From contig JACKBK010000018.1 of NCBI GenBank assembly GCA_020634555.1, positions 987-64,986 of the forward strand: DNA of 64,000 nucleotides. Direction: 5' to 3'. Source of the stretch: Caldilineae bacterium. GTDB lineage: Bacteria; Chloroflexota; Anaerolineae; JAAEKA01. Numbering within the stretch: the stretch's first letter is position 1; each line of letters opens with the position of its first letter. Shown here piece by piece: positions 4,113 to 57,962 of this stretch. The notes below the pieces were generated by a model that did not search any database, was not told the origin of the DNA, and was given only the letters and a program-made list of their open reading frames with translations. Made by a program: the position numbers and the translations under genes.

Positions 4113-5195
<1,083 letters not shown>

Positions 5196-5215
5196 GCACG
5201 CGTGTAATGGGCGCT

Positions 5216-5255: not shown

Positions 5256-5348
5256 TATGTCAGGGCAATTTTGGCGCCGGGTATCAACGCGGCGTTGATC
5301 AGCACCACGGTGTCGGCGCGCCTGGCGAGCTACCGCACTGTCGCATTC

Positions 5349-5879: not shown

Positions 5880-5908
5880 AGTTACTCCTTGTGCAAGTTT
5901 GGGATGCG

Positions 5909-7138: not shown

Positions 7139-7302
7139 TCCACACTCCTTTTGTTGTGTTGATAGTCGAGTAATTTGGTAGACATAACCAAATTCATTAA
7201 CAAACGCCGAACCCGGAGTTCACGAGACTCCGCAACGCTGCATACCAATATACCCCCTGATATGTTGGAAGCCTGGCGCTGTTCAGGTTTTATGGCAGAG
7301 GG

Positions 7303-7331
7303 ATTATACCCCAGGTGAGCGCTTTCGTCAA
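7303..7331 (-). promoter_or_regulatory. Sigma-70-type promoter for the S1-domain gene
   Basis: The minus strand reads TTGACG, a 17-nt spacer, then TATAAT. This would give a 5' UTR of about 160 nt. Confidence 0.5.
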
Positions 7332-7371
7332 AAGCCTCCAGACCTCCCCGCACCCTTGGGTTGAGCTGTGG

Positions 7372-8319: not shown

Positions 8320-8489
8320 TGTTTCACGTGAAACACGGTTATGACAAACATGCGTGGATTCTACAGGCAGTCGTGTGTCGTGTGCATGGCCTGCCGCGCC
8401 AGCGATTATAGCACGGCTGGCGCGCTCGCACCAAGCGCCAAGCCGGATCGGGAAGGGTAACCCGCCGGATGGATGCCGCGCAAATCACC

Positions 8490-8518
8490 TTGTCATGGAA
8501 CAGCGCTTCAGGTAGAAT
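8490..8518 (+). promoter_or_regulatory. Sigma-70-type promoter for the moxR operon
   Basis: TTGTCA, a 17-nt spacer, then TAGAAT, about 110 nt upstream of the MoxR start. Confidence 0.45.
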
Positions 8519-8627
8519 ACCCGCAGCAGTATTTGCCCGCGGATGGGTAGCTCAAAGGAAACGCTGATATCTTCCTTTCTCGGCTCATCCGCGTCCTCCC
8601 CTATCTGCGAATCAGTGCTGCCCGCAG

Positions 8628-9623: not shown

Positions 9624-9626
9624 ACC

Positions 9627-10868: not shown

Positions 10869-12532
10869 TGTCTGGTGACCTGGACCGCGCGCCGGCAACC
10901 GTTGAGGACCTGCGCGATTCAGCCTGGCAGAGTGAGATCGGCCGCCCGCTGCTGATCGCCATCCAGATGACCAGCCTGGTTGCCGGTCCGCTGGCCGTTG
11001 CCATCGCGATCACCGAGGATCCGCGGCTGCGTTTCGTGGCAGCGTTGGCGTTCCTGGCAGCATTGGCCGGAGTTTACAGCCACCAGTGGTTGTCGATGCC
11101 CTCACAGCGAGTGACCCGCAAGACCGCCTTCATGCTGGCCGAGCTGGTCGTGCTGGCACTGGTGCTGCGGGTGGCGACCTGGGCGCTGACCGGTGACTGG
11201 CCAACGGTCGAGACTTTGCGCGACTGGCTGCTGGACCCGTTTTCATTTCTGGACGGCTTCTACTTGATCGCGTTTCTGCTTTCGGCGCTGGCCTGGCAGC
11301 GGGCCGGAATCGTGGCCGAGCTGTTCTACCAACTGGCGCTGACGCCCGGCGAGCTGCGTTGGGTGGAGGAACAGCGACTCGGCTCCTGGTGGCGCGGCAG
11401 CCGCTCGACTGACCGCTCTCAGATATCGCGCCAGGAGATGGTCGATGGCTACATCACCCAATGGCTGATCGGCGGCTTCCTCCTGATCCTGTGTGCCGGC
11501 GCCACACGGGTCAGTATCGACAAGGACGCGGGCCTGCATCTCTTCAGCACCGGAGTCCCTGACCAGGTCATCGTGGCCACGGTCGTTTATTTCCTCACCG
11601 GGCTGCTGATGATCAGCCAGGCGCGGCTGGCGCAGATGCGCGCGCTCTGGTACTTCGACGGCGTTGAAGCGCCGCCGGGCCTGGTAAGCCGCTGGAACCG
11701 GCTAAGCCTTCTGGTCATCGTCGGTGTCGGCCTCGCTGCGTCATTGCTGCCGCTGGGATCTACCTGGCAGTTGGGATCGATCGTCAATCTGGTCGTCACA
11801 GTCGTCATGCAGATCGCGATCGGGATCGTCAGCCTGCTGGTTGCACTGTTCTCGTTGGTGCTGCTGTTGTTTGGAAAGCCGGTGGAGGAATTGCCGCAGC
11901 TTCCGATGACCCCCGCACAGGCGCCGCCACCGCCGCCGCCGGTGCCAACCCTTGATCTGCCAGCCTGGTTGGGCGGCGCAGGAGTCTGGCTGGCGGTGAT
12001 CGTGATGCTGATCCTGGTGCTGCGGTTCTTCATTGGCCCGGAGGGACTGGCGGTTACCAAGAATCGGCTACGCGCGCTGGCGCGACGGATATTCGCGCTG
12101 TTTGGCCGCTGGTGGGCTGGCGCAAAAGCAGCCGCGACCAGCCTGTCGGTGGTTGTACCACGACGGCGCGCTGCGGAAGACACAAAAGGTGGTGGGCTGC
12201 GGCTTCCCTGGCGTTTTGTGCGTCTCAACGCGCTGTCGCCGCGGGACCGCGTGCGCTACTTCTACCTCAGCACAGTCCATCGCGCGGCGAAGCAGGGCGC
12301 TGTTCGCCAGCCCAGCCAGACGCCTGTCGAGTTCCTGCACGATCTTGAGTCTACCTGGCCTGAGGCGGAGATGGACACATCGGCCCTGACGGAAGCATTC
12401 CTGGCCGCTCGCTACGACCGGGTTGAGATCACCCCGGACGACGCACAGGAAACCAAGACCGTCTGGGAGCGCGTCAAACGCGCTTTGAAGCAGCAACACG
12501 CGCCGCCAGACGAGTCAAAGGAGGATTCATAG
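10868..12532 (+). CDS. Polytopic membrane protein with a C-terminal DUF4129-like domain
   Basis: ORF 10367..12532 trimmed to the ATG at 10868, which overlaps the DUF58 stop (TGATG). Multiple hydrophobic segments, a PPPPPP linker, and a C-terminus RVRYFYLSTVHRAAKQG..TPVEFLHDL..AFLAARYDR. Confidence 0.7.
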   Translation: MSGDLDRAPATVEDLRDSAWQSEIGRPLLIAIQMTSLVAGPLAVAIAITEDPRLRFVAALAFLAALAGVYSHQWLSMPSQRVTRKTAFMLAELVVLALVLRVATWALTGDWPTVETLRDWLLDPFSFLDGFYLIAFLLSALAWQRAGIVAELFYQLALTPGELRWVEEQRLGSWWRGSRSTDRSQISRQEMVDGYITQWLIGGFLLILCAGATRVSIDKDAGLHLFSTGVPDQVIVATVVYFLTGLLMISQARLAQMRALWYFDGVEAPPGLVSRWNRLSLLVIVGVGLAASLLPLGSTWQLGSIVNLVVTVVMQIAIGIVSLLVALFSLVLLLFGKPVEELPQLPMTPAQAPPPPPPVPTLDLPAWLGGAGVWLAVIVMLILVLRFFIGPEGLAVTKNRLRALARRIFALFGRWWAGAKAAATSLSVVVPRRRAAEDTKGGGLRLPWRFVRLNALSPRDRVRYFYLSTVHRAAKQGAVRQPSQTPVEFLHDLESTWPEAEMDTSALTEAFLAARYDRVEITPDDAQETKTVWERVKRALKQQHAPPDESKEDS

Positions 12533-12539
12533 AACTGGT

Positions 12540-12776
12540 GTAACTGCTCACCCATCACTCCCGCGAAGCTCCCAATGCCATCACAGACAGCAGGCGCCGT
12601 GGTAAGAGACTTCTTCACTGTCCTTCTGAATGGATCAAACACGCGATCCGCACAAGGCCGAACCGATAATGAAGAATCTCTTCGTGGTCGTTTCTTGGCA
12701 AGCGGGAATCCAAGTCTGCGAGGAGTGGATTCCCGCCTTCGCGGGAATGACGCCACTCTGTCGGCTGAGTGGTTAC
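12540..12776. mobile_element. MITE-like repeat, copy A of the GTAAC-terminus / GTCATTCCCGCGGAG family
   Basis: Outer IR: GTAACTGCTCACCC (12540) / GGCTGAGTGGTTAC (12763-12776). Inner IR: ATCACTCCCGCGAAG (12554) / CTTCGCGGGAATGAC (12737-12751). By eye about 85 percent identical to copy 24703..24914. The ORFs predicted across it (12412..12795, 12575..12838, 12630..12860) are repeat-derived. Confidence 0.75.
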
Positions 12777-12841
12777 GAACCAAATCCCGTATCATTATGT
12801 CTACTAAGCATCATGTGGCGCAAGCGCCAAGGAGGTAACTT

Positions 12842-13798
12842 ATGGACTATGGAGCGTTGATTGGACGGGCCTGGCAGATCACATGGCGCTACAAGGTGCT
12901 GTGGATCTTCGGCATTCTGCTGGCGCTGACGGTCAGCGGCGGCGGAACTGTGGGCAGCGGTGGCGGGAACAGCGGCGGGTCGTCAGCGGCTATGGGATCG
13001 GCTGCGTTCGCTCCGATACTTGCCACCTTTCTGGTGCTCTGCTGCTGCGCGCTGCTGTTCTTCATCGTCGTGGCGGTCATCGTGCAATATGTGGCGCGCA
13101 CCGCGCTCTATCGCGGCGTGGACCAGATCGAGGAAGCGGGCGTTGGGCCGACCTGGCGCGAGGGCTTTCGGCTCGGGTGGAGCAACCGCGCCTTTCGTAT
13201 GTTCTTGCTGGACCTGATCATCGGCGTCGTGTTTGCCTTCGCGGCCATGCTGCTGATCGGGCTGGGCGCTCTGCCGCTGTTGCTGCTGATCTTCGACAAC
13301 GAGGCCGCGCGGATCATCGGAGTGGTGGCGACCGTCGGTCTGGAAATGATGGTCTTCTTCGGCTTGATGGTGGCGGGCGTCCTCATCAGCATCGGCGGCC
13401 AGTTCTGGCGGCGCGAGATCGCACTGGCAAACCGTGACATCGGCGCGGCGCTGAGTAGCGGCGTGGCGTTAGCCCGCAACAGCGCCGGCAACGTCGGCGT
13501 CATGTGGGTGATTCTGACCGCGATCGGCCTTGGGTTCGGCCTGGTGACGGCGATGGTGTTCTTCGCGCTGGGAATCATGGCCTTCGGCGCGGGCGGTGGA
13601 CTGGGATACGCGGTCTATGCGTTGACCGACTCGCCAGCGTTGGCGTTCCTGGTCGGCCTGCCGATCTTCCTGCTGATCACCGTAATACCGATGGCCATCG
13701 TGCGAGGCATCTACCTCGTCTTCGACTCCAGCGCCTGGACGTTGGTCTACCGCGAGGTCGCCGAAAGCGCGATGACGGATCTCGTGCCCGCCGCGTGA
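12842..13798 (+). CDS. Hypothetical polytopic membrane protein
   Basis: 318-aa ORF with a Gly-rich loop (GGGTVGSGGGNSGGSS) and at least 6 hydrophobic helices. No recognisable catalytic motif. Confidence 0.6.
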   Translation: MDYGALIGRAWQITWRYKVLWIFGILLALTVSGGGTVGSGGGNSGGSSAAMGSAAFAPILATFLVLCCCALLFFIVVAVIVQYVARTALYRGVDQIEEAGVGPTWREGFRLGWSNRAFRMFLLDLIIGVVFAFAAMLLIGLGALPLLLLIFDNEAARIIGVVATVGLEMMVFFGLMVAGVLISIGGQFWRREIALANRDIGAALSSGVALARNSAGNVGVMWVILTAIGLGFGLVTAMVFFALGIMAFGAGGGLGYAVYALTDSPALAFLVGLPIFLLITVIPMAIVRGIYLVFDSSAWTLVYREVAESAMTDLVPAA

Positions 13799-13803
13799 CG
13801 GCC

Positions 13804-15954
13804 ATGCCAACTTCTGCTGTGAACCTGACCGGGGCCCAGAGGGCCGTCGGCGCTGCGCCCTTCGACCGCACCATCTTCCTCGATGGGCCGGCCGGCGCGG
13901 GCAAGACCACCGCGGGCGTGCAGCGGCTGCTGAACCTGGTGCAAAGCGGCATCGCGGCCAGCTCGATCCTGGTGATGACGCCGGTGCGGCCGCTGGCCAG
14001 GCCGTACAGCGAGGCGTTGCGGCGCACCCGGCTGCGGCCGGGCAGCATCCCGGCGCTGGTCACCGCAGGCGGCCTGGCGCGGCGCAGTGTCGAGCTGTTC
14101 TGGCCGCTGGTCAGCCGAGAGGCCGGTTTCGCCCAGCCTGACAACCCGCCGGTCTTCCTGACACTGGAGACCGCGCAGTATCACATGGCGAGGATCGTCC
14201 GCCCGCTGCTGGAGGACGGCTACTTCGAGTCGGTGGCCATCGATCGCAACCGCATCTACAGCCAGATCATCGACAACCTCAACAAGGCTGCCGTGGTTGG
14301 CTTTCCATACACGGAGATCGGCGCTCGCTTGCACGGGGCATGGATGGGCGACGAGAGCCAGTTGCGTGTCTACCGCGACGCGCAGGAGTCCGCCAGCCGC
14401 TTCCGCGAGTATTGCCTGGACCACAACCTGCTGGACTTCTCGTTGCAGGTCGAGGTCTTCCGGCGCTATCTCTGGCCGTTGGCCGAGTGCCGCGAGTATC
14501 TGCAAGGCACGTACCGGCACCTGATCGTTGACAACCTGGAGGAGGACACACCCTTTACCCACGACCTGCTGCGCGACTGGCTGCCGCAGGTCGACTCGGC
14601 GCTGCTGATCTACGACCGAGAGGCGGGGTATCGCCAGTTTCTGGGCGCCGACCCGGATAGTGGCGCCGCGCTTAAGGTTCTCTGCACGGACTACGTAACC
14701 TTAAATGAGAGCTTCGTAGCGTCTCCAGCACTGCAAGTATTGGGAGCACACTTGGCGACCGCGCTCCGCCAGCCAGCGCCACCCGCACCGCCTGCCGAGC
14801 CTGCGGCCGTGCGCCAGACACTGCTGTTCGAGGAGAACATGCGCTTCTATCCACAGATGCTGGACTGGGTAGCCGCGCAGATCGTTGATCTGGTAGATGG
14901 CGGCGTCCTGCCGGGCGAGATCGTGGTGCTGGCGCCGTTCCTGTCCGACGCGCTGCGCTTCTCGCTGACCAACCGGCTGGCGCAGGCTGGCATCGCAGCC
15001 CGGTCGCACCGCCCATCGCGCGCGCTGCGGGATGAACCGGCGGCCCGCAGCCTGTTGACGCTGACCTCGCTGGCCCATCCCGACTGGCAGCGCCCACCGG
15101 CGCCGTTTGACGTGTCGTACGCGCTGATGCAGGCCATCGACGGGCTGGATCCGGTGCGCGCTCAACTGCTGACCAAGATCGTCTACCGCACCAAGGAGGG
15201 TTCACCCGGTTTCTCCTCCTTCGAGCAGATCAACCCCGACATGCACGAGCGCATCAGCTACGTGCTGGGCGGCCGGTTTGACACGCTGCGGGTCTGGCTG
15301 GCCGATCTACAACAGCGCCGTTCGCCCGCGACGCTGGACCACTTTCTCAGCCGGCTGTTCGGCGAGGTGCTTTCTCAGGCCGGTTTTGGCTTCCACGACA
15401 ATTTCGACGCGTCGCAGGCCGCGGCCAATCTGGTGGAGTCGGTGCAGAAGTTCCGGCAGGCGGTGGCGGAAGGGGACGGGGAAGAGGGAAGGGAAGGAAA
15501 AGAGAGCGGTGATTTGGGGCGCGAGTATCTGGATATGGTAGAGGACGGCGTGATCGCGGCGCAGTATGTGCGGGGTTGGCAGGAGGTGGATCGCAACGCG
15601 GTGCTGCTGGCGCCTGCCCACACCTTCCTGATGATGAACCGGCCGGTGGACTACCAGTTCTGGCTGGATATCGGCAGCCGCGGCTGGTACGAGCGCCTCT
15701 ATCAACCGTTGACGCACCCATATGTGCTGAGCCGTCACTGGCAGCCCGCCCGGCAGTGGGATCACGACGACGAGGACGCCGCCAACCAGGAGCGACTCTA
15801 CAAGCTGGCGGTCGGGTTGCTGCGCCGATGTCGCAAACAGGTTTTCTTGGGCTTGAGCGAGCTGGGCGAGCAGGGCTACGAACAGCGCGGCCCGCTGCTC
15901 TGGGCGTTCAACCACGTGCTGCGGCAGTTGGCAGTGTCGGAGAAAAGACAATAA
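13804..15954 (+). CDS. UvrD/AddB-like P-loop protein (degenerate helicase-like subunit with no nuclease domain)
   Basis: ORF 13504..15954 trimmed to the ATG at 13804 (MPTSAVNLTG...). Walker A LDGPAGAGKTT and a Walker-B-like HLIVDNLEED. The other SF1 motifs are weak or absent. Contains a purine-rich insert encoding EGDGEEGREGKESG. Confidence 0.65.
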   Translation: MPTSAVNLTGAQRAVGAAPFDRTIFLDGPAGAGKTTAGVQRLLNLVQSGIAASSILVMTPVRPLARPYSEALRRTRLRPGSIPALVTAGGLARRSVELFWPLVSREAGFAQPDNPPVFLTLETAQYHMARIVRPLLEDGYFESVAIDRNRIYSQIIDNLNKAAVVGFPYTEIGARLHGAWMGDESQLRVYRDAQESASRFREYCLDHNLLDFSLQVEVFRRYLWPLAECREYLQGTYRHLIVDNLEEDTPFTHDLLRDWLPQVDSALLIYDREAGYRQFLGADPDSGAALKVLCTDYVTLNESFVASPALQVLGAHLATALRQPAPPAPPAEPAAVRQTLLFEENMRFYPQMLDWVAAQIVDLVDGGVLPGEIVVLAPFLSDALRFSLTNRLAQAGIAARSHRPSRALRDEPAARSLLTLTSLAHPDWQRPPAPFDVSYALMQAIDGLDPVRAQLLTKIVYRTKEGSPGFSSFEQINPDMHERISYVLGGRFDTLRVWLADLQQRRSPATLDHFLSRLFGEVLSQAGFGFHDNFDASQAAANLVESVQKFRQAVAEGDGEEGREGKESGDLGREYLDMVEDGVIAAQYVRGWQEVDRNAVLLAPAHTFLMMNRPVDYQFWLDIGSRGWYERLYQPLTHPYVLSRHWQPARQWDHDDEDAANQERLYKLAVGLLRRCRKQVFLGLSELGEQGYEQRGPLLWAFNHVLRQLAVSEKRQ

Positions 15955-19458: not shown

Positions 19459-19716
19459 CCGTGAATGAATTCACGGCCTGACACAGAGAAGCATGCTGAA
19501 GCAAGCTGCCGAATTCGGATCTCCGCAGCCTGCTTTGAGCAAGCTTTTCCGCTATCAGACGCCGGATTCATCCGGCGGGATGCCAGCCGCCAGCCGCCGT
19601 GAATGAATTCACGGTCTGACACGGAGAAGCATGCTGAAGCAAGCTGCCGGATATCGGACCGCCGCAGCCTGCTTTGAGCAGGCTTTCCGCTATCAGACGC
19701 CGGATTCATCCGGCGG
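19459..19716 (+). repeat. Two tandem 120-bp REP/BIME-like units (period 138 bp) immediately upstream of the RAYT gene
   Basis: Unit 1 is 19459-19578 and unit 2 is 19597-19716; they are near-identical. Each begins with the hairpin CCGTGAA-TGAA-TTCACGG and also contains AGCCTGC..GCAGGCT and GCCGGA-TTCA-TCCGGC hairpins. Confidence 0.85.
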
Positions 19717-37188: not shown

Positions 37189-37249
37189 TGCCCCGCGCAA
37201 TGGAGTATGTTTCTTGAAAACACGATGGACTGGAGTGGCTTGAAACAAC

Positions 37250-38473
37250 GTGTATAAGCAAACGAGGCAAACCGTTGAGGTGGCTTTCGCAGGGTGCGAG
37301 CTTCCTGGCCCATCAGACGATCCTTATGAAGCCCTGCTGTTTCGCCTTAAGCAAGAGTTTGTTCCGCTGACCGTTCTGTGGGAGTTAACACACAAATGCA
37401 ACCTAGATTGCATCATGTGCTACAATGTCCCACTAGGCCAGTCTGAGTTGACCACGGTTGAATGTTTTAACGTTCTGGAGCAACTTGCGTCTGCAGGCAC
37501 TCTATACCTGACATTTACTGGTGGTGAGATTCTATCGAGGCGAGATTTTTTTCAGATTGCCCAGCATGCGCGATCTCTTGGATTTGCCGTCAGCCTCAAA
37601 ACCAATGGCACGTTGATTACGCCCGAAAAGGCCGATCAAATCGCCGCTCTCGCACCATTGCGGGTTGACATCAGTTTACTTGGCGCGACTGAAAAGACCT
37701 TCGATGCCATTGCCGGCAGCAAGGACACATTGCGACGAGTGTTGCGTGGTGTGAGGTTGTTGCAGGAACGCAACGTACGTGTAAAGCTTCTGTCGTTGCT
37801 GATGGACTTGAACATGCCCGAGCGCGAGCAGATGATCGACCTGGTGATGGAACTGGGCGTAGACTACGAGCAAGCGTTCAAGATATCCACGGCTGACGAT
37901 GGCACAGACAAAGCAGGTGATCATCAACTCTCCCGTGAACAGATGACAGAGGTTCTTGCGGTGGACCACACGCCATTCAGGCCACGGACCGTGAATGCGA
38001 CCTCGCGTACTTGTTCGGTAAGTCTGAGTTCATGTCTGGTGGATCCGTACGGCAACTTGTTGCCTTGCATCGAGTTGCGTATCCCTGCGGGCAATCTGCG
38101 AAATAAGCCGTTCTCCGAGCTATGGTCTAACGGCGGGATTTTCCGTCAACTGCGAAATCAGCATGTCATGAAGAACCTGCCCGATTGCTGGATATGTCCA
38201 ATCAACCGCTATTGCGAAGGGCGCTGTTCTGGATTGGCTCTTAAGGAACACGGAGACCTTTATGGCGGCCATCTGTTGGCGTGCCAGCAGGCACAGGCCC
38301 GTTTTGCATCGATCTTTCCCAATGAACGGGTCCCAGTAACGCCGCTTCAAACACGCCTGCACGGCTCAACAGTCAAGCGACCCGGATCACCACAAGTCGG
38401 CCAACCGATTCCGCTGTTAGAAGGGGTCAACGTTCACCCAACCTTCTTTATGGAAACGAACGGGTCAGTATAG
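37250..38473 (+). CDS. Radical SAM enzyme with a C-terminal SPASM domain (peptide-maturase type)
   Basis: 407 aa with a GTG start. CNLDCIMC (CxxxCxxC) followed by TFTGGEILSRRDF. SPASM cysteines CSVSLSSCLVDPYGNLLPC .. CWICPINRYCEGRC .. C. Confidence 0.85.
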   Translation: MYKQTRQTVEVAFAGCELPGPSDDPYEALLFRLKQEFVPLTVLWELTHKCNLDCIMCYNVPLGQSELTTVECFNVLEQLASAGTLYLTFTGGEILSRRDFFQIAQHARSLGFAVSLKTNGTLITPEKADQIAALAPLRVDISLLGATEKTFDAIAGSKDTLRRVLRGVRLLQERNVRVKLLSLLMDLNMPEREQMIDLVMELGVDYEQAFKISTADDGTDKAGDHQLSREQMTEVLAVDHTPFRPRTVNATSRTCSVSLSSCLVDPYGNLLPCIELRIPAGNLRNKPFSELWSNGGIFRQLRNQHVMKNLPDCWICPINRYCEGRCSGLALKEHGDLYGGHLLACQQAQARFASIFPNERVPVTPLQTRLHGSTVKRPGSPQVGQPIPLLEGVNVHPTFFMETNGSV

Positions 38474-48709: not shown

Positions 48710-50326
48710 CTACTCGCCGTATCCGGCTTCTTCATGAATGAAGAAGGTCTTTTCAAAGGTCTGTTCGTCGACGCCTTCAGGCTGCCAGAAGATTCTCATG
48801 GTGATCTTCTTCAAGCCGTCTTGCCATTCTTCGATGATCATCTTGCCGTAACCATTGGGCAGCCCTTCGTCGAGCCCCTTTTCGTAGGCTTTCACGTCTT
48901 CTTGGACGATATGCTGGGCCATTTCCTCCATCAGCCCTTGCATGACCGGGTTGGCGACGCTGTCCGGATCGCCCGGCACATCAACGCGCGTGTCCCATTC
49001 GCCAAGCTGCAGCTCAGCCCAGGGGGTTTCCCGCACGGGACCGGCCTCCTCTTCTGGCAGCATCAACTGCACGACCTCCTCGGCGGGCGGCGATGCAACC
49101 TTGAAGAACGGCGTTCCCATCCAGGTCAGGATCACGAACACAGCGAGTGCTAGCATCCACGCCGACAAGGCGAAACGCCGATCCTTGGCGCGGCGGCTGG
49201 GATTGAAGTCGATGTATGGCATGATGAACAGGAAGCCAAACACAATGGTGGGCACGACCACCCCCATGATCGTCGGATCGCCCAGCTTGAGCAGGCCCTG
49301 GATCCACAGGAAATACCACGGCGCCTTGGTGTGCAACGGCGTCTTGTTTGGATTGGCGTGGTGTTCCAGCGGCGCACCTGGATATACGTTCAGCACAATC
49401 AGCGCCAGCAGGATGAAGGTGATCAGCGCCAGCAACAACATCTCGTCGGTAAACACATCGGGCAGATAGTAGCGGCGCCTGTCAGCCGGCACACGCTTGG
49501 CTGTGTCCTGCCCAATCTCTTCCTCCGACGAGGGTAGGGAAATACCAACCCGCACCACCTTGTAGTAGTGGATGAAGAACACGAAGATCACCAGCAACGG
49601 CACGAAGAGCACATGCAACAGGTAAAAACGCAGCAAACCGGCCGGCCCGATAGCCGGCGCACCCAACAGGATAAGCTGCGTTGTCTTGCCGAGGACAGGC
49701 GGCGGCGCTTTGTCGATCATGCTGCCGCCGATGGTCACCGCCCAATAGGCCAACTGGTCCCACGGCAACAGATAGCCGCTGAAGCTGAGGAACAGGGTCG
49801 CCAGCAGAAGAACCACGCCCGTCAACCAGGTAAACTGGCGCGGCTTCTTGTACGATCCTGTTAAGAACGTACGCACCATGTGTAAGAAGACGACGATCAC
49901 CATTCCTTCCGCGGTCAGGCGGTGGACGTCGCGAATAAGTTCGCCGAAGGGCACGTTGGTGAGGATGTTCAGCATGTCGCCGTATGCCCGCTGAGGCGTC
50001 GGCGCATAGTAGATCATCAGAAAAATACCGGTCACCAGCTCGATGAAGAAGAAATACGTGCTCAATAACCCCAGCCGGAAGGTATGCGTCAGCTTGGTTA
50101 CAGACTGGTGGTAGTAGCTCGGCTTGATGTGAAACCAGAACGACTCCGAGTGAACCGTCAATCGGGGGTTGGGACGCCGCGGGTCATCGCCCCGGGCCAA
50201 CCCGCGCAGGTCGTTCCAGTTCAGCCCGGTGGTGAGCTTGGTTATCAGAACATCCAACTGTCTGAGCAGCCAGGAGATGACGCCCTCTGTGCGTATTTCC
50301 CGGGCAACGTTGTTGATAACACCCAT
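48710..50326 (-). CDS. Cytochrome b (fused b6 plus subunit IV-like protein) with an extra soluble C-terminal extension
   Basis: 538 aa. VHRLTAEGMVIVVFLHMVRTF, FSGYLLPWDQLAYWAVTIG and PLHTKAPWYFLWIQGLL. About 125 residues follow the last TM helix. Confidence 0.85.
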   Translation of the reverse strand: MGVINNVAREIRTEGVISWLLRQLDVLITKLTTGLNWNDLRGLARGDDPRRPNPRLTVHSESFWFHIKPSYYHQSVTKLTHTFRLGLLSTYFFFIELVTGIFLMIYYAPTPQRAYGDMLNILTNVPFGELIRDVHRLTAEGMVIVVFLHMVRTFLTGSYKKPRQFTWLTGVVLLLATLFLSFSGYLLPWDQLAYWAVTIGGSMIDKAPPPVLGKTTQLILLGAPAIGPAGLLRFYLLHVLFVPLLVIFVFFIHYYKVVRVGISLPSSEEEIGQDTAKRVPADRRRYYLPDVFTDEMLLLALITFILLALIVLNVYPGAPLEHHANPNKTPLHTKAPWYFLWIQGLLKLGDPTIMGVVVPTIVFGFLFIMPYIDFNPSRRAKDRRFALSAWMLALAVFVILTWMGTPFFKVASPPAEEVVQLMLPEEEAGPVRETPWAELQLGEWDTRVDVPGDPDSVANPVMQGLMEEMAQHIVQEDVKAYEKGLDEGLPNGYGKMIIEEWQDGLKKITMRIFWQPEGVDEQTFEKTFFIHEEAGYGE

Positions 50327-50350
50327 TCGATCCTGCTCCTTGCCAGTTGT

Positions 50351-51067
50351 CTAGTGCGGTTGGCCCTTGAGGATTTGGCCAGTATCGACAATGACTTCCG
50401 CGTTGGGATATTGGGCAGCCGGCAGCGGCTCGCCGCCCTCGGTTATATCGGCGACCTTCTGCCCGTTTTCTTCCAGAACAGCATAGAACTGATCCAACGA
50501 TCGCGGGGCCGGTCCTTCGATGTATTTGCCTGTCTTCTGGAACTTGGAACCGTGGCACGGGCACTCGAAGCGGAAGGTCTGGTCTTTCCACTCGTACAGG
50601 CAGCCCAGGTGCGTGCAGACGCGATAGAGCGCCCGGAAGCCGTCCGCATCGTTGCTTGTCCAGAACTTGCCGTCCAGATTCGAAATCGGTGGGCCGTCTA
50701 CCGGTGGCAGGCTGGAGAAGGTTCCCAGGTTGAACAAGCCGCCGAATTCGCCTTCCTTGAATCGCGGTACGGTGAACAAAAAGCCAGCGATGCCCGCCTC
50801 CACCAACACCACGCCCAAGGCCGCGCCCCATGCGTAGTTCAGGAACTCGCGGCGGCTGACAGCCTCGCTTTCAGGTTTGGCTGCTTTCTTTGCCGCTTTC
50901 TTCTCTTCTTTCTGCTGGCGGCCAGATTTGAGGTACTCGCCGCTGTCACTTTGGAAGGTTTGGCCGGCAGCGGCGTCCTGCTGGCGCTGCTGCTCCTTGG
51001 TCTCTTGAAACTTTTGTTGTTCGGGGCTTAGCTCGTCGCCCGCTCCTGAAGACTTCTGGTTTGCCAT
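50351..51067 (-). CDS. Rieske [2Fe-2S] subunit of a cytochrome bc-type complex
   Basis: CTHLGC and CPCHGS boxes, an N-terminal Lys/Glu/Gln-rich region and a TM anchor. Confidence 0.9.
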   Translation of the reverse strand: MANQKSSGAGDELSPEQQKFQETKEQQRQQDAAAGQTFQSDSGEYLKSGRQQKEEKKAAKKAAKPESEAVSRREFLNYAWGAALGVVLVEAGIAGFLFTVPRFKEGEFGGLFNLGTFSSLPPVDGPPISNLDGKFWTSNDADGFRALYRVCTHLGCLYEWKDQTFRFECPCHGSKFQKTGKYIEGPAPRSLDQFYAVLEENGQKVADITEGGEPLPAAQYPNAEVIVDTGQILKGQPH

Positions 51068-51210: not shown

Positions 51211-51239
51211 ATTATAGCATGTGGGTATACCCTTGTCAA
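51211..51239 (-). promoter_or_regulatory. Consensus sigma-70-type promoter of the Rieske/cytochrome b/cytochrome c operon
   Basis: The minus strand reads TTGACA, a 17-nt spacer, then TATAAT (perfect hexamers), about 140 nt upstream of the Rieske ATG. Confidence 0.6.
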
Positions 51240-51244
51240 AAAGT

Positions 51245-51685
51245 TCACATTTCTCCCGACGAATCTGGTGGCCGGCGTCGCTGCTTGGTTTGAGCCCGCC
51301 GCCGTTTGGCATCCAGGCGTCGCTGGCGGGCGGCTGCGCCGGGACGGGTCGGTTTGCGCCGCTTGCGCGGTTTCAGCGCTGCGGCCAGCAGCCGCCGGAA
51401 GCGCTCAGTCACGTCGGCACGGTTCTCAGCCTGGCTGCGGCCTGCTTGCGAGGTCAGATGCAACACGCCGTCGCTGTCCAGCCGGCTGGCCAGACGTGAC
51501 AGAGCCAGGGCGCGCTGCTCGTCGCCCAAACTGGGCGAGTTGGTGAGATCAAACAGCAGCTCCACCTTTGTCTCTGTCCGCTGGACATGCTGGCCGCCAG
51601 GCCCGCCGCCGCGCGCAAAGCGAAAGCTCAGCTCGCTAAGCGGAATGGCAACCTGCTCGTTGATGATCAGCGTATCTTCAGTCAC
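51245..51685 (-). CDS. arfB: Alternative ribosome-rescue factor ArfB (GGQ-domain peptidyl-tRNA hydrolase)
   Basis: 146 aa. GPGGQHVQRTETKVEL with a basic C-terminal tail KPRKRRKPTRPGAAARQRRLDAKRRRAQTKQRRR. Confidence 0.85.
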   Translation of the reverse strand: MTEDTLIINEQVAIPLSELSFRFARGGGPGGQHVQRTETKVELLFDLTNSPSLGDEQRALALSRLASRLDSDGVLHLTSQAGRSQAENRADVTERFRRLLAAALKPRKRRKPTRPGAAARQRRLDAKRRRAQTKQRRRPPDSSGEM

Positions 51686-51762: not shown

Positions 51763-52695
51763 TCAAGGTGTCGCTGTGCTGGGCGCAGTTCCGGTCAGTG
51801 GTTCGGTAGCCGTTAGCGGCAGGGTCGATGTGACTGTCCCTGTAACTGTCGGCGGTGGAATGATGACCGGTGGCGGGTCCAGGCGTTCGATGCGCAGCGA
51901 GCGCGTTAACTCATTGTAGCCCGCGCACGTTGGCTCCGAATACTGCAAGTTTCGGTTGCGAAAAAGCGACACCTCGTACAGCGCGCCGCTGTGCGACAGC
52001 AGGTCGTCCTCGCCGGGATACAGGGTAATCGTCTCGTTGCGCCAGCGTACCTCCAGCGGCAAAACCTGCCGGCTGGCAACGCAGGGATTGCTGGAAACGG
52101 GAACAGCAGGACACTCACCGTCAACGTTGGTTAACTCGATGTCCAGTGGATCGTCGCGCAGGTCGGTGTCGGTCAGTCCCAGAAACAACAATCCTGCATC
52201 GTCGAAGATCTGCAGGCCGTAGCTGCGCGCATCTGGCAACGTCTGGGCGGCCGGAGTCGCCGTATCCGCTGGCACTGGCGACAGCGAGCCAGAGGAAATG
52301 TCTGCCCACGCCACCAGCCGATACGACTGGTCCACGGCCAGCGGCGGCGGGTCTCCCTGATAGTCCAGCGTCAACGTGATGCCCTCGGCGGCCTCGGCCA
52401 GGATGAAGCGCCGATGCGGCGCGCGCGCCGGGTCGTCGTCCTGCCCCACCACGCGTGCCTGAAATTCGATCACCTGTCCGGCGCGGTAGGCCGTGGTCAG
52501 GTCGGTCTCCGGTGGATCCAGCGGCAGCAGCAGCCAGGTCTGCGGCGCGCCGTCTCCGCGGCACTGCGCCGGCAGGTCGATCTGCGCCTCTGGCGCGGTA
52601 TCGGGCACGCCAGGCTCCGGCGCGATCTGCGGCGCGCTGCAACCAGCCAGGGCGACTATCAGACCGATCAGCAAAGCAAAGCGTAATCTGTTCAT
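51763..52695 (-). CDS. Hypothetical lipoprotein
   Basis: Lipobox LIVALAGCSAP. No recognisable domain. Confidence 0.55.
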   Translation of the reverse strand: MNRLRFALLIGLIVALAGCSAPQIAPEPGVPDTAPEAQIDLPAQCRGDGAPQTWLLLPLDPPETDLTTAYRAGQVIEFQARVVGQDDDPARAPHRRFILAEAAEGITLTLDYQGDPPPLAVDQSYRLVAWADISSGSLSPVPADTATPAAQTLPDARSYGLQIFDDAGLLFLGLTDTDLRDDPLDIELTNVDGECPAVPVSSNPCVASRQVLPLEVRWRNETITLYPGEDDLLSHSGALYEVSLFRNRNLQYSEPTCAGYNELTRSLRIERLDPPPVIIPPPTVTGTVTSTLPLTATEPLTGTAPSTATP

Positions 52696-52800: not shown

Positions 52801-55584
52801 CTAGCCTTCCAGCGCCGCCAGCCGCTCCTCGATCTGCGTCTGCTTGGCCTGCCACTCGGCCAACTGCTGGCGCGCGCCGGCGATCACGTTCTCAGGAGCG
52901 TTGTTGACGAAGCCGGGATTGGCCAGGCGCGCGGCGGTGCTGGTCGCCATCTTCTGCGCGTTGGCCAGCTCCTTTCGCAGCCGCGCCAGCTCCACGTCGA
53001 TGTCCACCAGATCCGCCAGCGGCAGCGCGACCGTGACGCCGCCGGCCACGGAAGACGCCGCCTTGGCCGGTATCTCCAGGCTCTCGGCTACGCTGGTGTG
53101 TTCCAGGTCCAGCCCGGCCAGCCCGGCGATCACCGGCAGCTCGCGCTGCACCAACTCGGCGTGCTTGCCGGCGCTGAACAGCGCGCCGATGCGCCGTCCC
53201 GGCGACACGTTGTATTCAGCACGCGCGTTGCGTATCGCCCGCACGATCTCCTGGATGCGCTCAAAGTCGGCCTCGATACGCTTGGTCCGCTTGCCAGTCT
53301 GTGGCCACGATGCGATGATCAACGCCTCCGGCCAATCGCCATCGCCAGACGGAACACCGGTGGCCAACGCACCCGCCCGCAACTGCTGCCAGATGTCCTC
53401 GGTCACGAACGGGATGAAGGGATGCAGCAGGCGCAGCGTCTGGTCCAGCACGCGCACCAGCAGGTGCGCCGTCTGCCAGGCCGTGTCGCCGCCGGCATCG
53501 AACTGGCTCTTGGCGATCTCGATGTACCAGTCGGCCACCTCGCCCCAGAGAAACTCATACGCCTGCCGGCCCGCCTCGCCGTACTGGTACGAGTCGAACA
53601 GCCGCGTCACCTCGGCGATCGTGTGGTTAAGCCGGCTCTCGATCCAGCGATCGGCGAGCGTCGGAGTCTCAGAGATCAGAGAGTCAGAGGTCAGAAGGTC
53701 AGAAGTCAGAGACTCAGAGACTGCCTGTCCTTCTGCTCCTCTGTCCCTCTGCTCCTCTGCCATCCTGCCCAAATTCGCCAGCGTGAAGCGGGTCGCGTTC
53801 CATATCTTGTTGGCGAAGTTGCGGTTGGCGCGCACCCGGTCGATGCTCAGGTTCATGTCGTTGCCGGGCGTCGAGCCGGTCAGCAGAGTGAAGCGCAGCG
53901 CGTCGGCGCCGAACTCGTCCATCACCTCGATGGGATCGATGACGTTGTTGAACGTCTTGGACATCTTGCGTCCCTGCTCATCTCTGACAAGGCCGTGCAG
54001 ATAGACGGTGTGGAAGGGGATGTCGTTGGTGTAGAGCAGCCCCTGCATGATCATCCTCGCCACCCAGAAGAACAGGATGTCATAGCCGGTCTCCAGCACA
54101 TCGGTGGGATAGTAGCGGCGCAGGTCGTCGGTGTCGTCGGGCCAGCCCAGCGTGCTGAACGGCCACAGTCCCGAGCTGAACCATGTGTCGAGCACATCGG
54201 GATCCTGCTCCAGCGCCGCCGGCTTGCCGTAGTGTTTGGTCGCCTGTTCCTGTGCTTCCTCTTCGCTGCGGGCCACAAACACCGTTCCGTCCGGCCCGTA
54301 CCAGGCAGGGATGCGGTGTCCCCACCAAAGCTGGCGGCTGATGCACCACGGACGCAGGTTCTCCAACCAGTGGTAATACACCTTGGTGAAGCGCTCAGGC
54401 ACGATCTGGATGGCGCCGCTGCGCATGGCTGCCAGCCCCAGCGCGGCCATGCCGTCGGTGTTGACGAACCACTGCTTGCTGATCAGCGGCTCGATGATCT
54501 CGCCGCCGCGCTGGGCGCGCGGCACGGTCAGTGCATACGGCTCTTCTTTGATCACCAGCCCGGCGGCGCGCATGTCTTCCCACAGCTTGCGGCGCGCCTC
54601 GAAACGCTCCATCCCGGCGTACGGCCCGGCCTCGGCGTTGAGCGTGGCGTCCTTGTTCATCACGTTGATGATCGCCAGTCCGTGGCGCTGGCCGATCTCG
54701 AAGTCGTTGGGATCGTGGCCGGGGGTGATCTTCAGCGCGCCGGTGCCGAAGTCGGTGGACACATAGGTGTCGTGGATCACCGGGATGGTGCGGTTGAGCA
54801 TCGGCACCAGACAGGTGCTGCCGATCAGGTGGCGGTAGCGATCGTCGTCGGGATGCACGGCCACGGCGGTGTCGCCCAGGATCGTCTCAGGGCGAGTGGT
54901 AGCCACGGGGATATAGCCCTTGCCCGGCCCTTCGTCCAGGCTATGGCCGGCCAGCGGGTATTTGAAGTAGTAGAGCGTTCCCTGCTCTTCGCTGTACTCC
55001 ACCTCCACGTCGCTGACGGCAGTCTGCAGCCCGGGCGACCAGTTGACGATGTACTCGCTCTGGTAGATGAGACCCATCCGGTGCAGGCGCACGAACGCCT
55101 CGGCCACCGCTCGGCTCAGCCCCTCGTCCAGGGTGAAGCGCTCGCGGTCCCAGTCGCAGCTCGCGCCCAGCCGGCGGATCTGGCCGGTGATGCCGCTGTG
55201 CTTCTCGTCCTTCCATGCCCAGCAGGCCTCCAGAAAGCGCTCGCGACCGAGTTCCTCGCGGCTGGTGCCCTCGTTGCGCAGCTTGCGCTCGACCTGAAGC
55301 TGGGTCGCGATGCCGGCGTGATCGGTGCCGGGCACCCACAGCGCTGCCTTGCCCTGCATCCGCGCGTAGCGGATCATCAGGTCCTCCAGAGCGACGAAGA
55401 GCGCGTGTCCCTGGTGCAGGACGCCGGTCACGTTGGGCGGCGGGATGGAGATCACGAACGGTTTGGCGTCCGGGCCGGCAACCTCCGGCTTGAACCAGCC
55501 GTTCTGCTCCCACCAGTCATACAGCCGCCCCTCCGCGGCATCGAAGTCGTAGGTTTTGGGCATGTCAAATGGGTTGTTGGTCAT
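52801..55584 (-). CDS. valS: Valine--tRNA ligase
   Basis: 927 aa. HIGH-type motif PPPNVTGVLHQGH, the KMSKS motif (RKMSKTF), an editing domain and a C-terminal coiled coil. A low-complexity insert lies in the loop before LADRWI. Confidence 0.95.
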   Translation of the reverse strand: MTNNPFDMPKTYDFDAAEGRLYDWWEQNGWFKPEVAGPDAKPFVISIPPPNVTGVLHQGHALFVALEDLMIRYARMQGKAALWVPGTDHAGIATQLQVERKLRNEGTSREELGRERFLEACWAWKDEKHSGITGQIRRLGASCDWDRERFTLDEGLSRAVAEAFVRLHRMGLIYQSEYIVNWSPGLQTAVSDVEVEYSEEQGTLYYFKYPLAGHSLDEGPGKGYIPVATTRPETILGDTAVAVHPDDDRYRHLIGSTCLVPMLNRTIPVIHDTYVSTDFGTGALKITPGHDPNDFEIGQRHGLAIINVMNKDATLNAEAGPYAGMERFEARRKLWEDMRAAGLVIKEEPYALTVPRAQRGGEIIEPLISKQWFVNTDGMAALGLAAMRSGAIQIVPERFTKVYYHWLENLRPWCISRQLWWGHRIPAWYGPDGTVFVARSEEEAQEQATKHYGKPAALEQDPDVLDTWFSSGLWPFSTLGWPDDTDDLRRYYPTDVLETGYDILFFWVARMIMQGLLYTNDIPFHTVYLHGLVRDEQGRKMSKTFNNVIDPIEVMDEFGADALRFTLLTGSTPGNDMNLSIDRVRANRNFANKIWNATRFTLANLGRMAEEQRDRGAEGQAVSESLTSDLLTSDSLISETPTLADRWIESRLNHTIAEVTRLFDSYQYGEAGRQAYEFLWGEVADWYIEIAKSQFDAGGDTAWQTAHLLVRVLDQTLRLLHPFIPFVTEDIWQQLRAGALATGVPSGDGDWPEALIIASWPQTGKRTKRIEADFERIQEIVRAIRNARAEYNVSPGRRIGALFSAGKHAELVQRELPVIAGLAGLDLEHTSVAESLEIPAKAASSVAGGVTVALPLADLVDIDVELARLRKELANAQKMATSTAARLANPGFVNNAPENVIAGARQQLAEWQAKQTQIEERLAALEG

Positions 55585-55602
55585 GATGAGTCCTTGAATC
55601 GA

Positions 55603-56367
55603 TTATTTCGGGCTGTTACCAACCAGCCGCACTTCCCAGTCACACGACAACTCGCGCACGTTGCTCAAGCCGGCTGCCTCCATCAGTTCTATCACCTCCG
55701 CGCGCCGCCACATGCGGTAGCGCAGCGGATACACCTCCGTCTGCCAGCCGTCGGCGCTTTCCTGCGAGAAGAAGACCTCGAACGTCACCAGCGGATCGTC
55801 GTAGCTCCACAGGTCCCACAACACCGTACGCAGGCCGGGAGCAGGCGCGTCCTTGTGTTCGTGACGGAATCGGAAACGCGGCCGCTCGGTGGCAATGGCA
55901 TCCCAGTCGCGCTGGCCGACGATGACCAGCCCGCCGGGCCGCGTCTGGTCCACCATCTGGCGCAACGCGGCCTGCATATCGGTCTCGGTCAACAGATGTG
56001 GCAACGAGTTGCCCAGCGACACCACGGCGTCGAACGGGCCGGCGAACGGGACGCGGTCCAGAAAACGCACGTCGGCGCGGTGCCACATCACGGACACACC
56101 AAACTCCGCTGCCCCACGCTGCGCCACGGCCAGGTTCTCGTCGCTGAGATCGCTGGCCGCCACATCATAGCCGTTCAGCGCCAGGGCAATAGCCTGAGTG
56201 CCGATGCCGCAGGTGCAGTCCAGCACGTTGCGAACGCCGAACGGGCGCAGAATCCCGTCCAGCCAGGCGCCCTCCTGTTTCATGTAGGCGTGCCAGTCGC
56301 GGTAGAACAGCCGGTGCCGGTTGGCCACCGCGTCGTAGAAGGTCTCGCTGTTGGTTGCTAAAGCCAC
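55603..56367 (-). CDS. Class I SAM-dependent methyltransferase (small-molecule N-methyltransferase-like)
   Basis: 254 aa with a GTG start. VLDCTCGIGTQAIALALNGYDVAASDLS (motif I plus the acidic residue). The ORF ends 18 nt before the valS start. Confidence 0.8.
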   Translation of the reverse strand: MALATNSETFYDAVANRHRLFYRDWHAYMKQEGAWLDGILRPFGVRNVLDCTCGIGTQAIALALNGYDVAASDLSDENLAVAQRGAAEFGVSVMWHRADVRFLDRVPFAGPFDAVVSLGNSLPHLLTETDMQAALRQMVDQTRPGGLVIVGQRDWDAIATERPRFRFRHEHKDAPAPGLRTVLWDLWSYDDPLVTFEVFFSQESADGWQTEVYPLRYRMWRRAEVIELMEAAGLSNVRELSCDWEVRLVGNSPK

Positions 56368-56388
56368 GATTGCCTGCCTTGTCGATCC

Positions 56389-57156
56389 CTAAAGTTTCTT
56401 TGCCACGATCACCAGCCGGCTGTTGAACGGCTCGAATGGGTTTTCGTCCAGCGGCGTGGCCAGATTGCCGTAATAGGCTATCGGTTCCAGCCCGGCTGCT
56501 TGCAGCATCGCCGTCAGTTCGGTAGCGGTGTACAGGTGAACCCGGAAGTACAAACTCTGCCGCTCGCCCCGATCATCGCTCCACAGCCAAAACTCGGTGT
56601 TGGTTCCACCGATCGCGTCGAACTCGCGGCTGACGCAGACCAATAGATCGTCCACCTCGAACCAGTCGGTGGGACGGTAGTTGTGTACCACTGCATCGCG
56701 CTGCGCGAGGTCGATGACGAAAACACCGCCCGGCCGCAGCACCCGCGCCACCTCAGCCAGCACCTGCTGGTTATCGTCCGGTTCGTCGAAGTAGCCAAAG
56801 GCCGAGAACATGTTGAGCACCGCGTCGAACTTGCTGGACCAGTCCGCCGGCAGAGTACGCATGTCGCCTTCCTGCCATGTGACATCGAGGCCGGCCCGCG
56901 CGGCCGCGGTTTGAGCCTGATCCAGCAAGAACACCGACAGGTCGGAGCCGGTCACGCGATGACCGGCCTGTGCCAGCGGCAGTGCAATACGCCCGTAGCC
57001 ACACGCCAGGTCAAGCACACTGGCTGCATCGCCGCAGTGCTGCTCCAGCAGGACCAGCAGCGCCTCGACTTCCTGGTCGGTGCGCAGCGGCGGCCGCGCC
57101 TCGGCGAACATGCGCAGGTATTTCTCATCAAACAGGTCTTGCCACCAGTGGGTCAT
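56389..57156 (-). CDS. Class I SAM-dependent methyltransferase
   Basis: 255 aa. VLDLACGYGRIALPLAQAGHRVTGSDLS and LRPGGVFVID. First gene after the T-box leader. Confidence 0.8.
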   Translation of the reverse strand: MTHWWQDLFDEKYLRMFAEARPPLRTDQEVEALLVLLEQHCGDAASVLDLACGYGRIALPLAQAGHRVTGSDLSVFLLDQAQTAAARAGLDVTWQEGDMRTLPADWSSKFDAVLNMFSAFGYFDEPDDNQQVLAEVARVLRPGGVFVIDLAQRDAVVHNYRPTDWFEVDDLLVCVSREFDAIGGTNTEFWLWSDDRGERQSLYFRVHLYTATELTAMLQAAGLEPIAYYGNLATPLDENPFEPFNSRLVIVAKKL

Positions 57157-57170
57157 GGGTCTTCCTTGCG

Positions 57171-57279
57171 GTGATCGGTGTTCAGTGACCAGTGATCAGT
57201 TATCAGTAGCCAGCCAGCAGATGGTCGACATCTCTGCACCATTCACCGTTCACCATTAACTATTAACCATTAACCAATT
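57171..57279. repeat. Two heptanucleotide tandem arrays in the spacer between the T-box terminator and the first methyltransferase gene
   Basis: 57171-57220 reads GTGATCG GTGTTCA GTGACCA GTGATCA GTTATCA GTAGCCA GCCAGCA. 57238-57279 reads ACCATTC ACCGTTC ACCATTA ACTATTA ACCATTA ACCAATT. Confidence 0.8.
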
Positions 57280-57602
57280 AAAAACCCCTTCCATCACAAG
57301 GACGAAAGGGGAGTTCGCGGTACCACCTTGTTTGGCAGCCGGCGCCAGCCAACTGCCCACTCATGCGCTGTAACGGGCGTTCCCGGGATGGCCTGCCCGG
57401 TATTCGGTAATCCGTATTCGGTGATCGGAGGTCTTTTTCCGATTACTGTTTACCGATCACCGTTCACCGATTGAGCCACCCGACTCCCCGGCGACCTTCG
57501 GCGGTGCTCACGTCCGGGCAGGCTTTCAGTCGCTGACCTGCCCTCCCTGGTGACGGCGTGCCGCCTACTCCTCCGGTTCACAGTCGTTGCTGGTTTTCGA
57601 TT
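57280..57602 (-). promoter_or_regulatory. T-box riboswitch leader with an intrinsic terminator; predicted Val (GUC) specifier
   Basis: The minus strand contains the T-box sequence AAGGUGGUACCGCGAACUCCCCUUUCGUCC (GGUGGUACCGCG at 57316-57327). It is followed by the terminator CCCCUU..AAGGGG plus UUUUU (A-run at 57280-57284). Stem I elements: AGGAGUA, an AGCGA bulge motif and UGAAAG. The specifier-loop 3' side GAAGGUCG places GUC (57493-57495) directly before the closing helix. Confidence 0.8.
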
Positions 57603-57608
57603 GCCTCG

Positions 57609-57637
57609 ATTATAGCCTGAACAACGTTGGCTGTCAA
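57609..57637 (-). promoter_or_regulatory. Consensus sigma-70-type promoter of the T-box/valS operon
   Basis: The minus strand reads TTGACA, a 17-nt spacer, then TATAAT (perfect hexamers). Confidence 0.65.
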
Positions 57638-57962
57638 CCCGTAAATGCTCGGCAAAGCCGCATGCCAAGAAGAACTCGTCGCGATTTTTCTATGGAAGCG
57701 ACCTGTGAGAAAATTGGGGAGATCACAGGCTGTTTGTATCACCCTGCCAGCGCCGATGAGATCACCGAGTTCAATCGCCGCGTCAAGACGCTCGAAGACA
57801 GAATGCGCAGCTCCGGCGAGCTTTGAAAATTGCGAGCAGCCAGGCGCACAAAGTGTACCAGGGCAGACGACCATCGGATGTCTTGGCTGAACAACGAAAC
57901 TGGTCAGGTAAGGGTGAAGCTGTCACCCCCGTTCTCTCTCTAGTCTTACCTACAACGCTTCC

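Follow-up and report, generated by a model that had tools for sequence, protein, structure and literature searches.

A valine-specific T-box leader precedes a methyltransferase gene kept beside valS in Chloroflexota

The window analyzed here is a stretch of 64,000 nucleotides (nt) from a Caldilineae bacterium contig of the Chloroflexota (JACKBK010000018.1). On its minus strand, a sigma-70-type promoter (57609..57637) is followed by a T-box riboswitch leader (57295..57590) and three genes. Two of these encode class I S-adenosylmethionine (SAM)-dependent methyltransferases: MT1 (56389..57156, 255 amino acids), assigned to the NmbA/CypM-like amine N-methyltransferase type from Pfam, a PDB match, fold and synteny, and MT2 (55603..56367, 254 amino acids, GTG start), a distant relative of glycine/sarcosine N-methyltransferase (GSMT) and glycine N-methyltransferase (GNMT) by Pfam, sequence and fold. 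The third is valS (52801..55584), identified by Pfam and NCBIfam, which encodes a valine--tRNA ligase (ValRS) of 927 amino acids. An earlier sequence-only reading had described this order, with gaps of 21 nt between MT1 and MT2 and 18 nt between MT2 and valS, and it is borne out here; each gap also holds a Shine-Dalgarno-like sequence. Comparison with relatives indicates that MT1 has long been kept by selection as a partner of valS within a Chloroflexota clade, and that it is not an accident of one genome.

The promoter matches the TTGACA-17-TATAAT consensus at 12/12 positions, as first reported. Two such perfect sites occur in the 64-kb window, against 0.00 expected by chance from shuffles; the second (51211..51239, minus strand) lies directly upstream of Rieske/cytochrome b genes (51067..48710). 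The leader consists of Stem I, Stem II with an insertion, Stem IIA/B, Stem III and an antiterminator, and the elements picked out from the letters (Stem I, the T-box sequence, the terminator and its U5 tract) all lie where they had been placed. A permissive scan of 57100..57750 with the Rfam T-box model RF00230 matched 57590..57295 over model positions 1-219/219, with a score of 84.5 bits (E 7.5e-19). The covariance model thus recognizes the leader over its full length, but the match stays below the curated gathering score of 93 bits, and an Rfam scan of the whole window at that score reported nothing, T-box included. The shortfall is due to a 76-nt insertion in Stem II, with no element missing; relative to other RF00230 T-boxes, this leader scores low through GC-rich divergence and the repeat hairpin that occupies the tip of Stem II. 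The insertion corresponds to a heptamer-repeat hairpin (57399..57470), and Stem II including it folds at -42.7 kcal/mol (z = -6.0), the insert lengthening the helix rather than breaking it. No second copy of the insert was found elsewhere in the window at up to three mismatches. The 3' leader between the terminator and MT1 (57171..57276) also contains direct and inverted heptamer repeats, and arrays of a 7-nt unit (roughly CNGTRAW) make long hairpins on the minus strand in both segments. Folded as a whole, the leader reaches -143.6 kcal/mol (z = -3.9).

The specifier codon is GUC, for valine (57493..57495), preceded by the GAA-G of the S-turn side and followed by a purine, G at 57492. Along its 3' side, the specifier loop has GAA-G-GUC-G (57499..57492), in which GUC comes immediately ahead of the final loop base, and the model segment GAAauuca aligned to GAAGGUCG gives the same codon and purine. 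This placement agrees with the position rule of TBDB (PMC7778990), and the third specifier base obeys the "C-rule." The leader shows a trait that marks T-box membership, a Stem I specifier codon plus purine matching the downstream gene, here valS. The antiterminator (57297..57330, model positions 185-216) contains the T-box core GGUGGUACCGCG at 57327..57316, and the conserved T-box sequence with its UGGN bulge is AAGGUGGUACCGCG at 57329..57316; UGGU in this bulge faces the tRNA 3' end. The usual discriminator base of bacterial tRNA-Val is A73, which UGGU would fit, and we infer such a match with the cognate tRNA-Val. Neither the window nor the relatives' loci that were fetched contain a tRNA-Val gene, and the tRNA genes near two of those loci, L008 and L088, are tRNA-Thr. 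At 37224-37315 of the window, ARAGORN calls a 92-nt "tRNA-???" with a two-base anticodon, on which Rfam at gathering score is silent; this is probably a false call.

An intrinsic terminator (57280..57311) follows, with an 11-bp stem (57311..57285), a 5-nt loop and a U5 tract, and its 5' arm doubles as the 3' half of the antiterminator. The two structures have the segment UUCGUCC in common and are mutually exclusive, as had been proposed. The terminator folds at -16.7 kcal/mol (z = -3.7), and the antiterminator folded alone forms a bulged helix at -5.7 kcal/mol, as would be expected were tRNA required to keep the read-through form in place. Its predicted structure marks the leader as a T-box riboswitch of the classical transcription-attenuation type, specific for tRNA-Val, with GUC read by anticodon GAC.

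The leaders of relatives give the same picture. T-box matches at 66-93 bits were found in 20 orthologous loci, with those upstream of MT1 orthologs including L001-L003, L008-L010, L013, L015, L088, L092, L093, L173 and L174. Only the L013 leader reaches the gathering score (93.1 bits); with all other leaders in the clade below it, standard annotation misses the T-boxes of this clade. GUC is unvarying in 15/15 aligned leaders (in L015 as GAA-C-GUC-G) and is also found in L093, L173 and L174. In the 15-leader alignment, 96.2% of cells are standard pairs, and compensatory changes occur in 21/63 pairs compared with 6.6 +/- 1.9 in shuffles (0/500 reach 21). As a control, structures slid by 1-3 columns gave 2-9 compensated pairs. 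The compensatory changes fall mostly in distal Stem I and Stem III, but the terminator has them too, with C-G to U-A changes in L011 and L013. We regard the RNA architecture and the specifier as established.

In 10/14 relatives, a perfect promoter precedes the leader by about 20 nt, and the distance from the T-box core to the MT1 start ranges from 70 to 172 nt. The Stem II tip is hypervariable, and heptamer-repeat hairpins occur there in the window, L001, L008, L011, L088 and L092, which suggests that this position tolerates repeat expansion repeatedly. In L088 (5040-5055), the T-box bulge is UGGC rather than UGGU and would have no canonical pairing with A73, reflecting either a real variant or an assembly error.

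To follow MT1 beyond the window, we gathered its homologs from the protein database, from species-representative genomes and from the contigs that encode them. All homologs at least 45% identical to MT1 come from Chloroflexota-type assemblies (labeled Anaerolineae, Chloroflexia or Chloroflexota). MT1 (45-84% identity) lies directly upstream of valS in 17 distinct loci, and among the homologs of at least 45% identity it adjoins valS wherever the contig reaches (L002-L010, L012-L015, L088-L092, L173, L174 and the P0028 contig), with L016 as the single exception. Where MT2 is absent, the MT1-valS distance is -14 to about +215 nt, with the MT1 stop codon often overlapping or abutting the valS start codon (L003, +2; L173, 0; P0028, -4; L174, -14). 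The pair also outlasts changes in its surroundings. L173 (RsmD-like gene, DUF2207) and L174 (SecDF, DnaA) have unrelated flanks, and both still have a GUC T-box, MT1 and valS. In L090/L091, the order MT1-MT2-valS is kept, and no T-box was detectable across 7.6 kb; MT1 there starts 43 nt after an upstream gene. In L090 (1-7605) and L091, the genes preceding MT1 on the same strand are aminoglycoside-phosphotransferase-like and alpha/beta-hydrolase genes. Gene order and its conservation are directly visible in these contigs. The sequence-only reading had raised the question of whether two methyltransferase genes and valS recur behind a T-box in related genomes; T-box, MT1 and valS do recur across a wide Chloroflexota clade, more strongly than expected, but MT2 is variable.

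The exception, L016, is a metagenome-assembled genome of the Ardenticatenaceae, in which an Ile T-box (GAA-A-AUC-C, specifier AUC) is followed by an MT1 homolog (46% identity) and then by ileS. The cluster after that T-box (4650-14647) encodes an AlaXM-type editing protein, a hypothetical protein, an RNase H-like protein, the MT1 homolog and two IleRS proteins, the first of which matches the ileS profile from position 142 onwards only. More distant homologs, at most 42% identical to MT1, are spread over Planctomycetota, Poribacteria, cyanobacteria, Actinomycetota, Myxococcota and others. Within about 7 kb of these 71 homologs, neither T-box cores nor class I synthetase genes were found, and the homologs have no neighbor gene in common across phyla.

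The distribution of MT2 is different, and only MT1 is a constant partner of valS; MT2 is accessory and variably present. MT2 orthologs (60-82% identity) separate MT1 from valS in L008, L088/L089, L090/L091 and L092, and in L093 an ortholog follows MT1 just before the contig ends. Many lineages have no MT2, and L009 has a remnant of 49 codons. A metagenome scan with MT2 returned one ortholog (L093); the other 79 loci hold distant homologs, and valS was never beside them. Mobile-type genes lie between MT2 and valS in some relatives: a REP-associated tyrosine transposase (RAYT) in L008 and an HNH endonuclease in L089. These inserts (L008, 8558-9235; L089, 6765-7193; L088, 6754-7736) leave valS up to about 1 kb from the leader, and no second T-box is present in the interrupted loci L008 and L088/L089. 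Weak T-box matches of 63 and 47 bits were found just downstream of distant MT2-like genes in L103 (4821-5128) and L104 (5934-6244), respectively. The L103 specifier is AAG (Lys-like), and both T-boxes are oriented toward other genes and apparently have no connection with the methyltransferase.

In the window itself, the transcription unit probably extends past valS. Between MT1, MT2 and valS, the minus strand has no promoter-like site of at least 9/12 matches, and its terminator candidates within the unit are weak hairpins (5 found versus 3.4 expected by chance), none of them convincing. This agrees with the earlier proposal of one transcription unit, and we infer that MT1, MT2 and valS are co-transcribed. 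Downstream of valS is a conserved lipoprotein gene (51763..52695, minus strand, 310 amino acids, lipobox LAGC), which matches no family in Pfam or NCBIfam and is probably co-transcribed. It follows valS in all relatives with enough sequence, with a 17-nt overlap in L006 and 6 nt away in L003. Probably last is a gene for an ArfB-like RF-1-domain protein (51245..51685, minus strand, 146 amino acids; PF00472, 62.7 bits), right after which the next perfect promoter begins (51239..51211, minus strand), so two perfect promoters bracket the unit. The most likely unit is thus leader-MT1-MT2-valS-lipoprotein-arfB.

The genes of this unit have evolved under similar constraint. Relative to L088, the ratio of nonsynonymous to synonymous substitution rates (dN/dS) is 0.16 for MT1, 0.19 for MT2, 0.17 for valS and 0.17 for the lipoprotein gene; MT1 and MT2 are under purifying selection as strong as that on valS. 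Recent horizontal acquisition of MT1 and MT2 was rejected because GC content shows no anomaly over the two genes. ValRS is full length (NCBIfam, 1165.8 bits versus a cut-off of 704), and its editing and catalytic motifs (VATTRPET, GTGALKITPGHDPND and KMSK) are intact, so we rejected the idea that the methyltransferases compensate for a non-editing ValRS. Within valS, tandem 8- and 16-nt repeats (53669-53764, residues about 607-639) encode a low-complexity linker, SESLTSDLLTSDSLISE, that joins the catalytic and anticodon-binding domains; each ortholog compared has a linker of different length and sequence. Elsewhere in the window, a 138-nt unit that includes short inverted repeats is duplicated in tandem at 19459-19716 (1.9 copies, 93% identical).

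What do the two methyltransferases act on? Sequence, profile and structure searches agree with the first impression that both resemble small-molecule N-methyltransferases. The best solved relative of MT1 by sequence is NmbA (PDB 9RI2, 102 bits, full length), then 1wzn, YunM and CypM; its best NCBIfam match, daptide methyltransferase, scores 82.8 bits versus a cut-off of 175. The AlphaFold2 model of MT1 (predicted local distance difference test [pLDDT] 93.1) is closest in Foldseek to 1wzn, CypM, CcbJ, NmbA, 3d2l and YunM, followed by TylM1 and GSMT, and those fold neighbors with known function mostly methylate small-molecule or peptide amines and have a four-strand cap. MT1 has in common with the NmbA/CypM/YunM/CcbJ group the class I core and four-strand cap (Foldseek E about 1e-21), and all members of that group methylate a primary or secondary amine. 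NmbA itself methylates the cysteine amine of bacillithiol (PMC12719100). However, MT1 is about 28% identical to NmbA by structural alignment, below the 35% that defines the NmbA cluster (PMC12719100), and after strand 5 its orthologs have an invariant Q-R-D where NmbA has I-N-P. In the NmbA survey, none of the Chloroflexota had the full bacillithiol pathway (bshA/bshB/bshC; PMC12719100 supplement). Given the low identity and that survey, we rejected MT1 as a bacillithiol methyltransferase.

MT2 is only 30% identical to MT1, on which ground we rejected a recent duplication. Its best sequence matches are GSMT (about 69 bits) and GNMT (about 65 bits), and it scores 84.1 bits against the NCBIfam GSMT model NF051855, below the cut-off of 350. 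The MT2 model (pLDDT 88.9) matches 1wzn first and then GSMT, with CalS10, TylM1 and GNMT lower. In MpGSMT, the substrate contacts are Arg167, Asn134, His138, Tyr206 and Met218 (PMC5146677). Compared with GSMT (PDB 5HIL/5H02) and GNMT, MT2 retains G-N-S-x-x-H-L and Q-R-(D/N)-(W/Y)-D, and of the GSMT contacts it has the Arg that binds the carboxylate (R153), the Asn that binds the amine (N120) and the His (H124), all invariant or nearly so in MT2 orthologs. V198 and V212 of MT2 align to GSMT Tyr206 and Met218, respectively, in a variable cap region where the alignment is uncertain; valine at these two positions would fit a different, more hydrophobic pocket. A GSMT-SDMT betaine pair is not supported: both proteins fall far below the NCBIfam cut-offs, and no SDMT partner for the GSMT-like MT2 is recognizable.

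Neither protein looks like an RNA methyltransferase. No RNA methyltransferases are among the best sequence or fold matches of MT1 and MT2, and both are single-domain proteins of about 255 amino acids with the four-strand cap typical of small-molecule enzymes and no RNA-binding extension. Their motif IV regions read NMFSAFGYF in MT1 and LGNSLPHL in MT2, without the (D/N/S)PP(Y/F/W/H) motif of N6-adenine/glutamine-N5 methyltransferases, and the absence of this motif led us to reject a tRNA(Val) m6A37 (YfiC/TrmN6) identity. Judging from these comparisons and the predicted folds, MT1 and MT2 are amine-directed small-molecule N-methyltransferases.

Together, these features suggest how the locus would work. 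Transcription from the consensus promoter would, when tRNA-Val is charged, end at about 57280 through formation of the -16.7 kcal/mol terminator. Uncharged tRNA-Val would pair with the specifier, and its free NCCA end with the UGGU bulge, stabilizing the weaker antiterminator and allowing RNA polymerase to read on. We expect such a response of the leader to tRNA from its predicted structure. The read-through transcript would span MT1, MT2 and valS and probably extend through the genes for the lipoprotein and the ArfB-like protein, so that the methyltransferases would be induced along with ValRS whenever charging of tRNA-Val falls.

It is tempting to conclude that the methyltransferases serve ValRS, and we give about an even chance to a functional partnership in which MT1, with MT2 as an accessory, is linked to valS/ValRS function. 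The pairing is kept despite replaced flanks, and in one lineage a replaced leader, and a related copy is found with ileS; by the logic of conserved neighborhoods, this points to a functional link. As for its nature, our guess is that the substrate of MT1 and MT2 is an amino-acid-like compound related to the function of ValRS, which would tie their chemistry to valine. Several points weigh against this partnership. The lipoprotein gene has no conceivable valine link, and its presence in the unit means that unrelated genes can ride along. MT2 has been lost in some lineages, down to a remnant in L009, and in L008 and L088/L089 the RAYT and HNH genes came to separate MT2 from valS, with no second T-box. 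A valine-consuming enzyme induced during valine shortage would be counterproductive, and the kept editing site of ValRS leaves no fidelity gap evident. The predicted folds indicate just an amine N-methyltransferase for a small molecule. Finally, the co-transcription and the UGGU/A73 match are themselves predictions, and the valines in place of Tyr206 and Met218 come from a sequence alignment in the variable cap region of MT2.

Much the same evidence could be read as the trace of an ancestral insertion that put MT1, and later MT2, between the leader and valS. The methyltransferases would then be passengers, retained since separation would cut valS off from its promoter and leader, with a chemistry irrelevant to valine or ValRS. 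We consider this doubtful but quite possible. It accommodates the unrelated lipoprotein gene in the unit, the gain and loss of MT2 between lineages, the mobile genes inserted at the same place, MT1-family genes in other phyla without a synthetase link, and folds that suggest generic natural-product-type N-methyltransferases. There is also a precedent in valS-folC of Bacillus subtilis, a T-box valS operon with an unrelated gene. As here, the extra gene is neither a synthetase nor a valine-pathway gene; there, however, it follows valS, whereas here it lies between leader and valS and the pairing is kept over wider divergence. The passenger account fares less well with MT1 and valS staying together where everything around them has been rearranged (L173, L174), and the survival of the pair without a T-box in L090 argues against MT1 being merely trapped between leader and gene. 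The frequent overlap of stop and start codons, the MT1 homolog paired with ileS in L016 and purifying selection equal to that on valS speak against it as well. A substrate in the valine-charging machinery is improbable in our view, whether tRNA-Val (base or ribose), the alpha-amine of Val-tRNA-Val, or ValRS (N-terminal or lysine). The tight and often translationally coupled MT1-valS pairing would suit it, as would the activity of CypM and YunM, close structural relatives of MT1, on peptide N-terminal amines, but the lack of RNA methyltransferases among the best matches, of the (D/N/S)PP(Y/F/W/H) motif and of any extension beyond a small-molecule-type single domain stands against it. A role on tRNA-Val, which the sequence-only reading had entertained, thus finds no support in fold or motifs. 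It is very improbable that the leader has decayed or does not function, leaving constitutive expression from the strong promoter or from internal promoters. The score below the gathering threshold, the Stem II insertion and the repeat-filled 3' leader could be taken as decay; on the other hand, all model positions are matched at a highly significant E value, the specifier, T-box core and terminator are invariant or co-varying across 15 leaders, the insertion extends a helix at its hypervariable tip, and an ortholog (L013) does reach the threshold.

The functional partnership has a more specific form, which we think unlikely but worth stating: MT1, and MT2 where present, as a dedicated helper of class Ia synthetases, an N-methyltransferase that would be induced with ValRS upon low tRNA-Val charging. 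If so, N-methylation would neutralize valine analogues, near-cognate amino acids or a ValRS inhibitor; alternatively, the helper would methylate Val-tRNA-Val, tRNA-Val or ValRS. The T-box operon would then be a combined supply and quality-control (or antimetabolite-defense) module, and a sister version of it would be the Ile T-box cluster of L016, in which an AlaX-type editing protein and two IleRS genes accompany a methyltransferase of the same family. Even short of this, a functional link would reveal an accessory activity of valine charging not known before, and the arrangement gives a testable handle on the function of a widespread family annotated as "class I SAM-dependent methyltransferase."

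Surveys of T-box regulons list synthetase, biosynthesis and transporter genes as targets and cover few Chloroflexi; a methyltransferase in a Val T-box operon is not mentioned in them (PMC2494555, PMC3766115 and PMC7778990). We found no earlier report of the T-box-MT1-valS arrangement in the literature, with subscription journals outside the search. A conserved amine N-methyltransferase between a Val T-box and valS is a new kind of T-box regulon cargo. The leader has the same full architecture as the transcriptional class of T-box riboswitches with Stem II and the IIA/B pseudoknot, such as the B. subtilis tyrS and valS leaders. Also found both here and in that class are a purine after the specifier codon, a 14-nt T-box sequence containing the UGGN bulge, the mutually exclusive antiterminator and terminator, and a cognate synthetase gene downstream. 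In contrast to that class, the first gene after the leader is a methyltransferase gene, not a synthetase, biosynthetic or transporter gene. In all, the switch is an ordinary, textbook T-box, and the unusual part is its conserved cargo.

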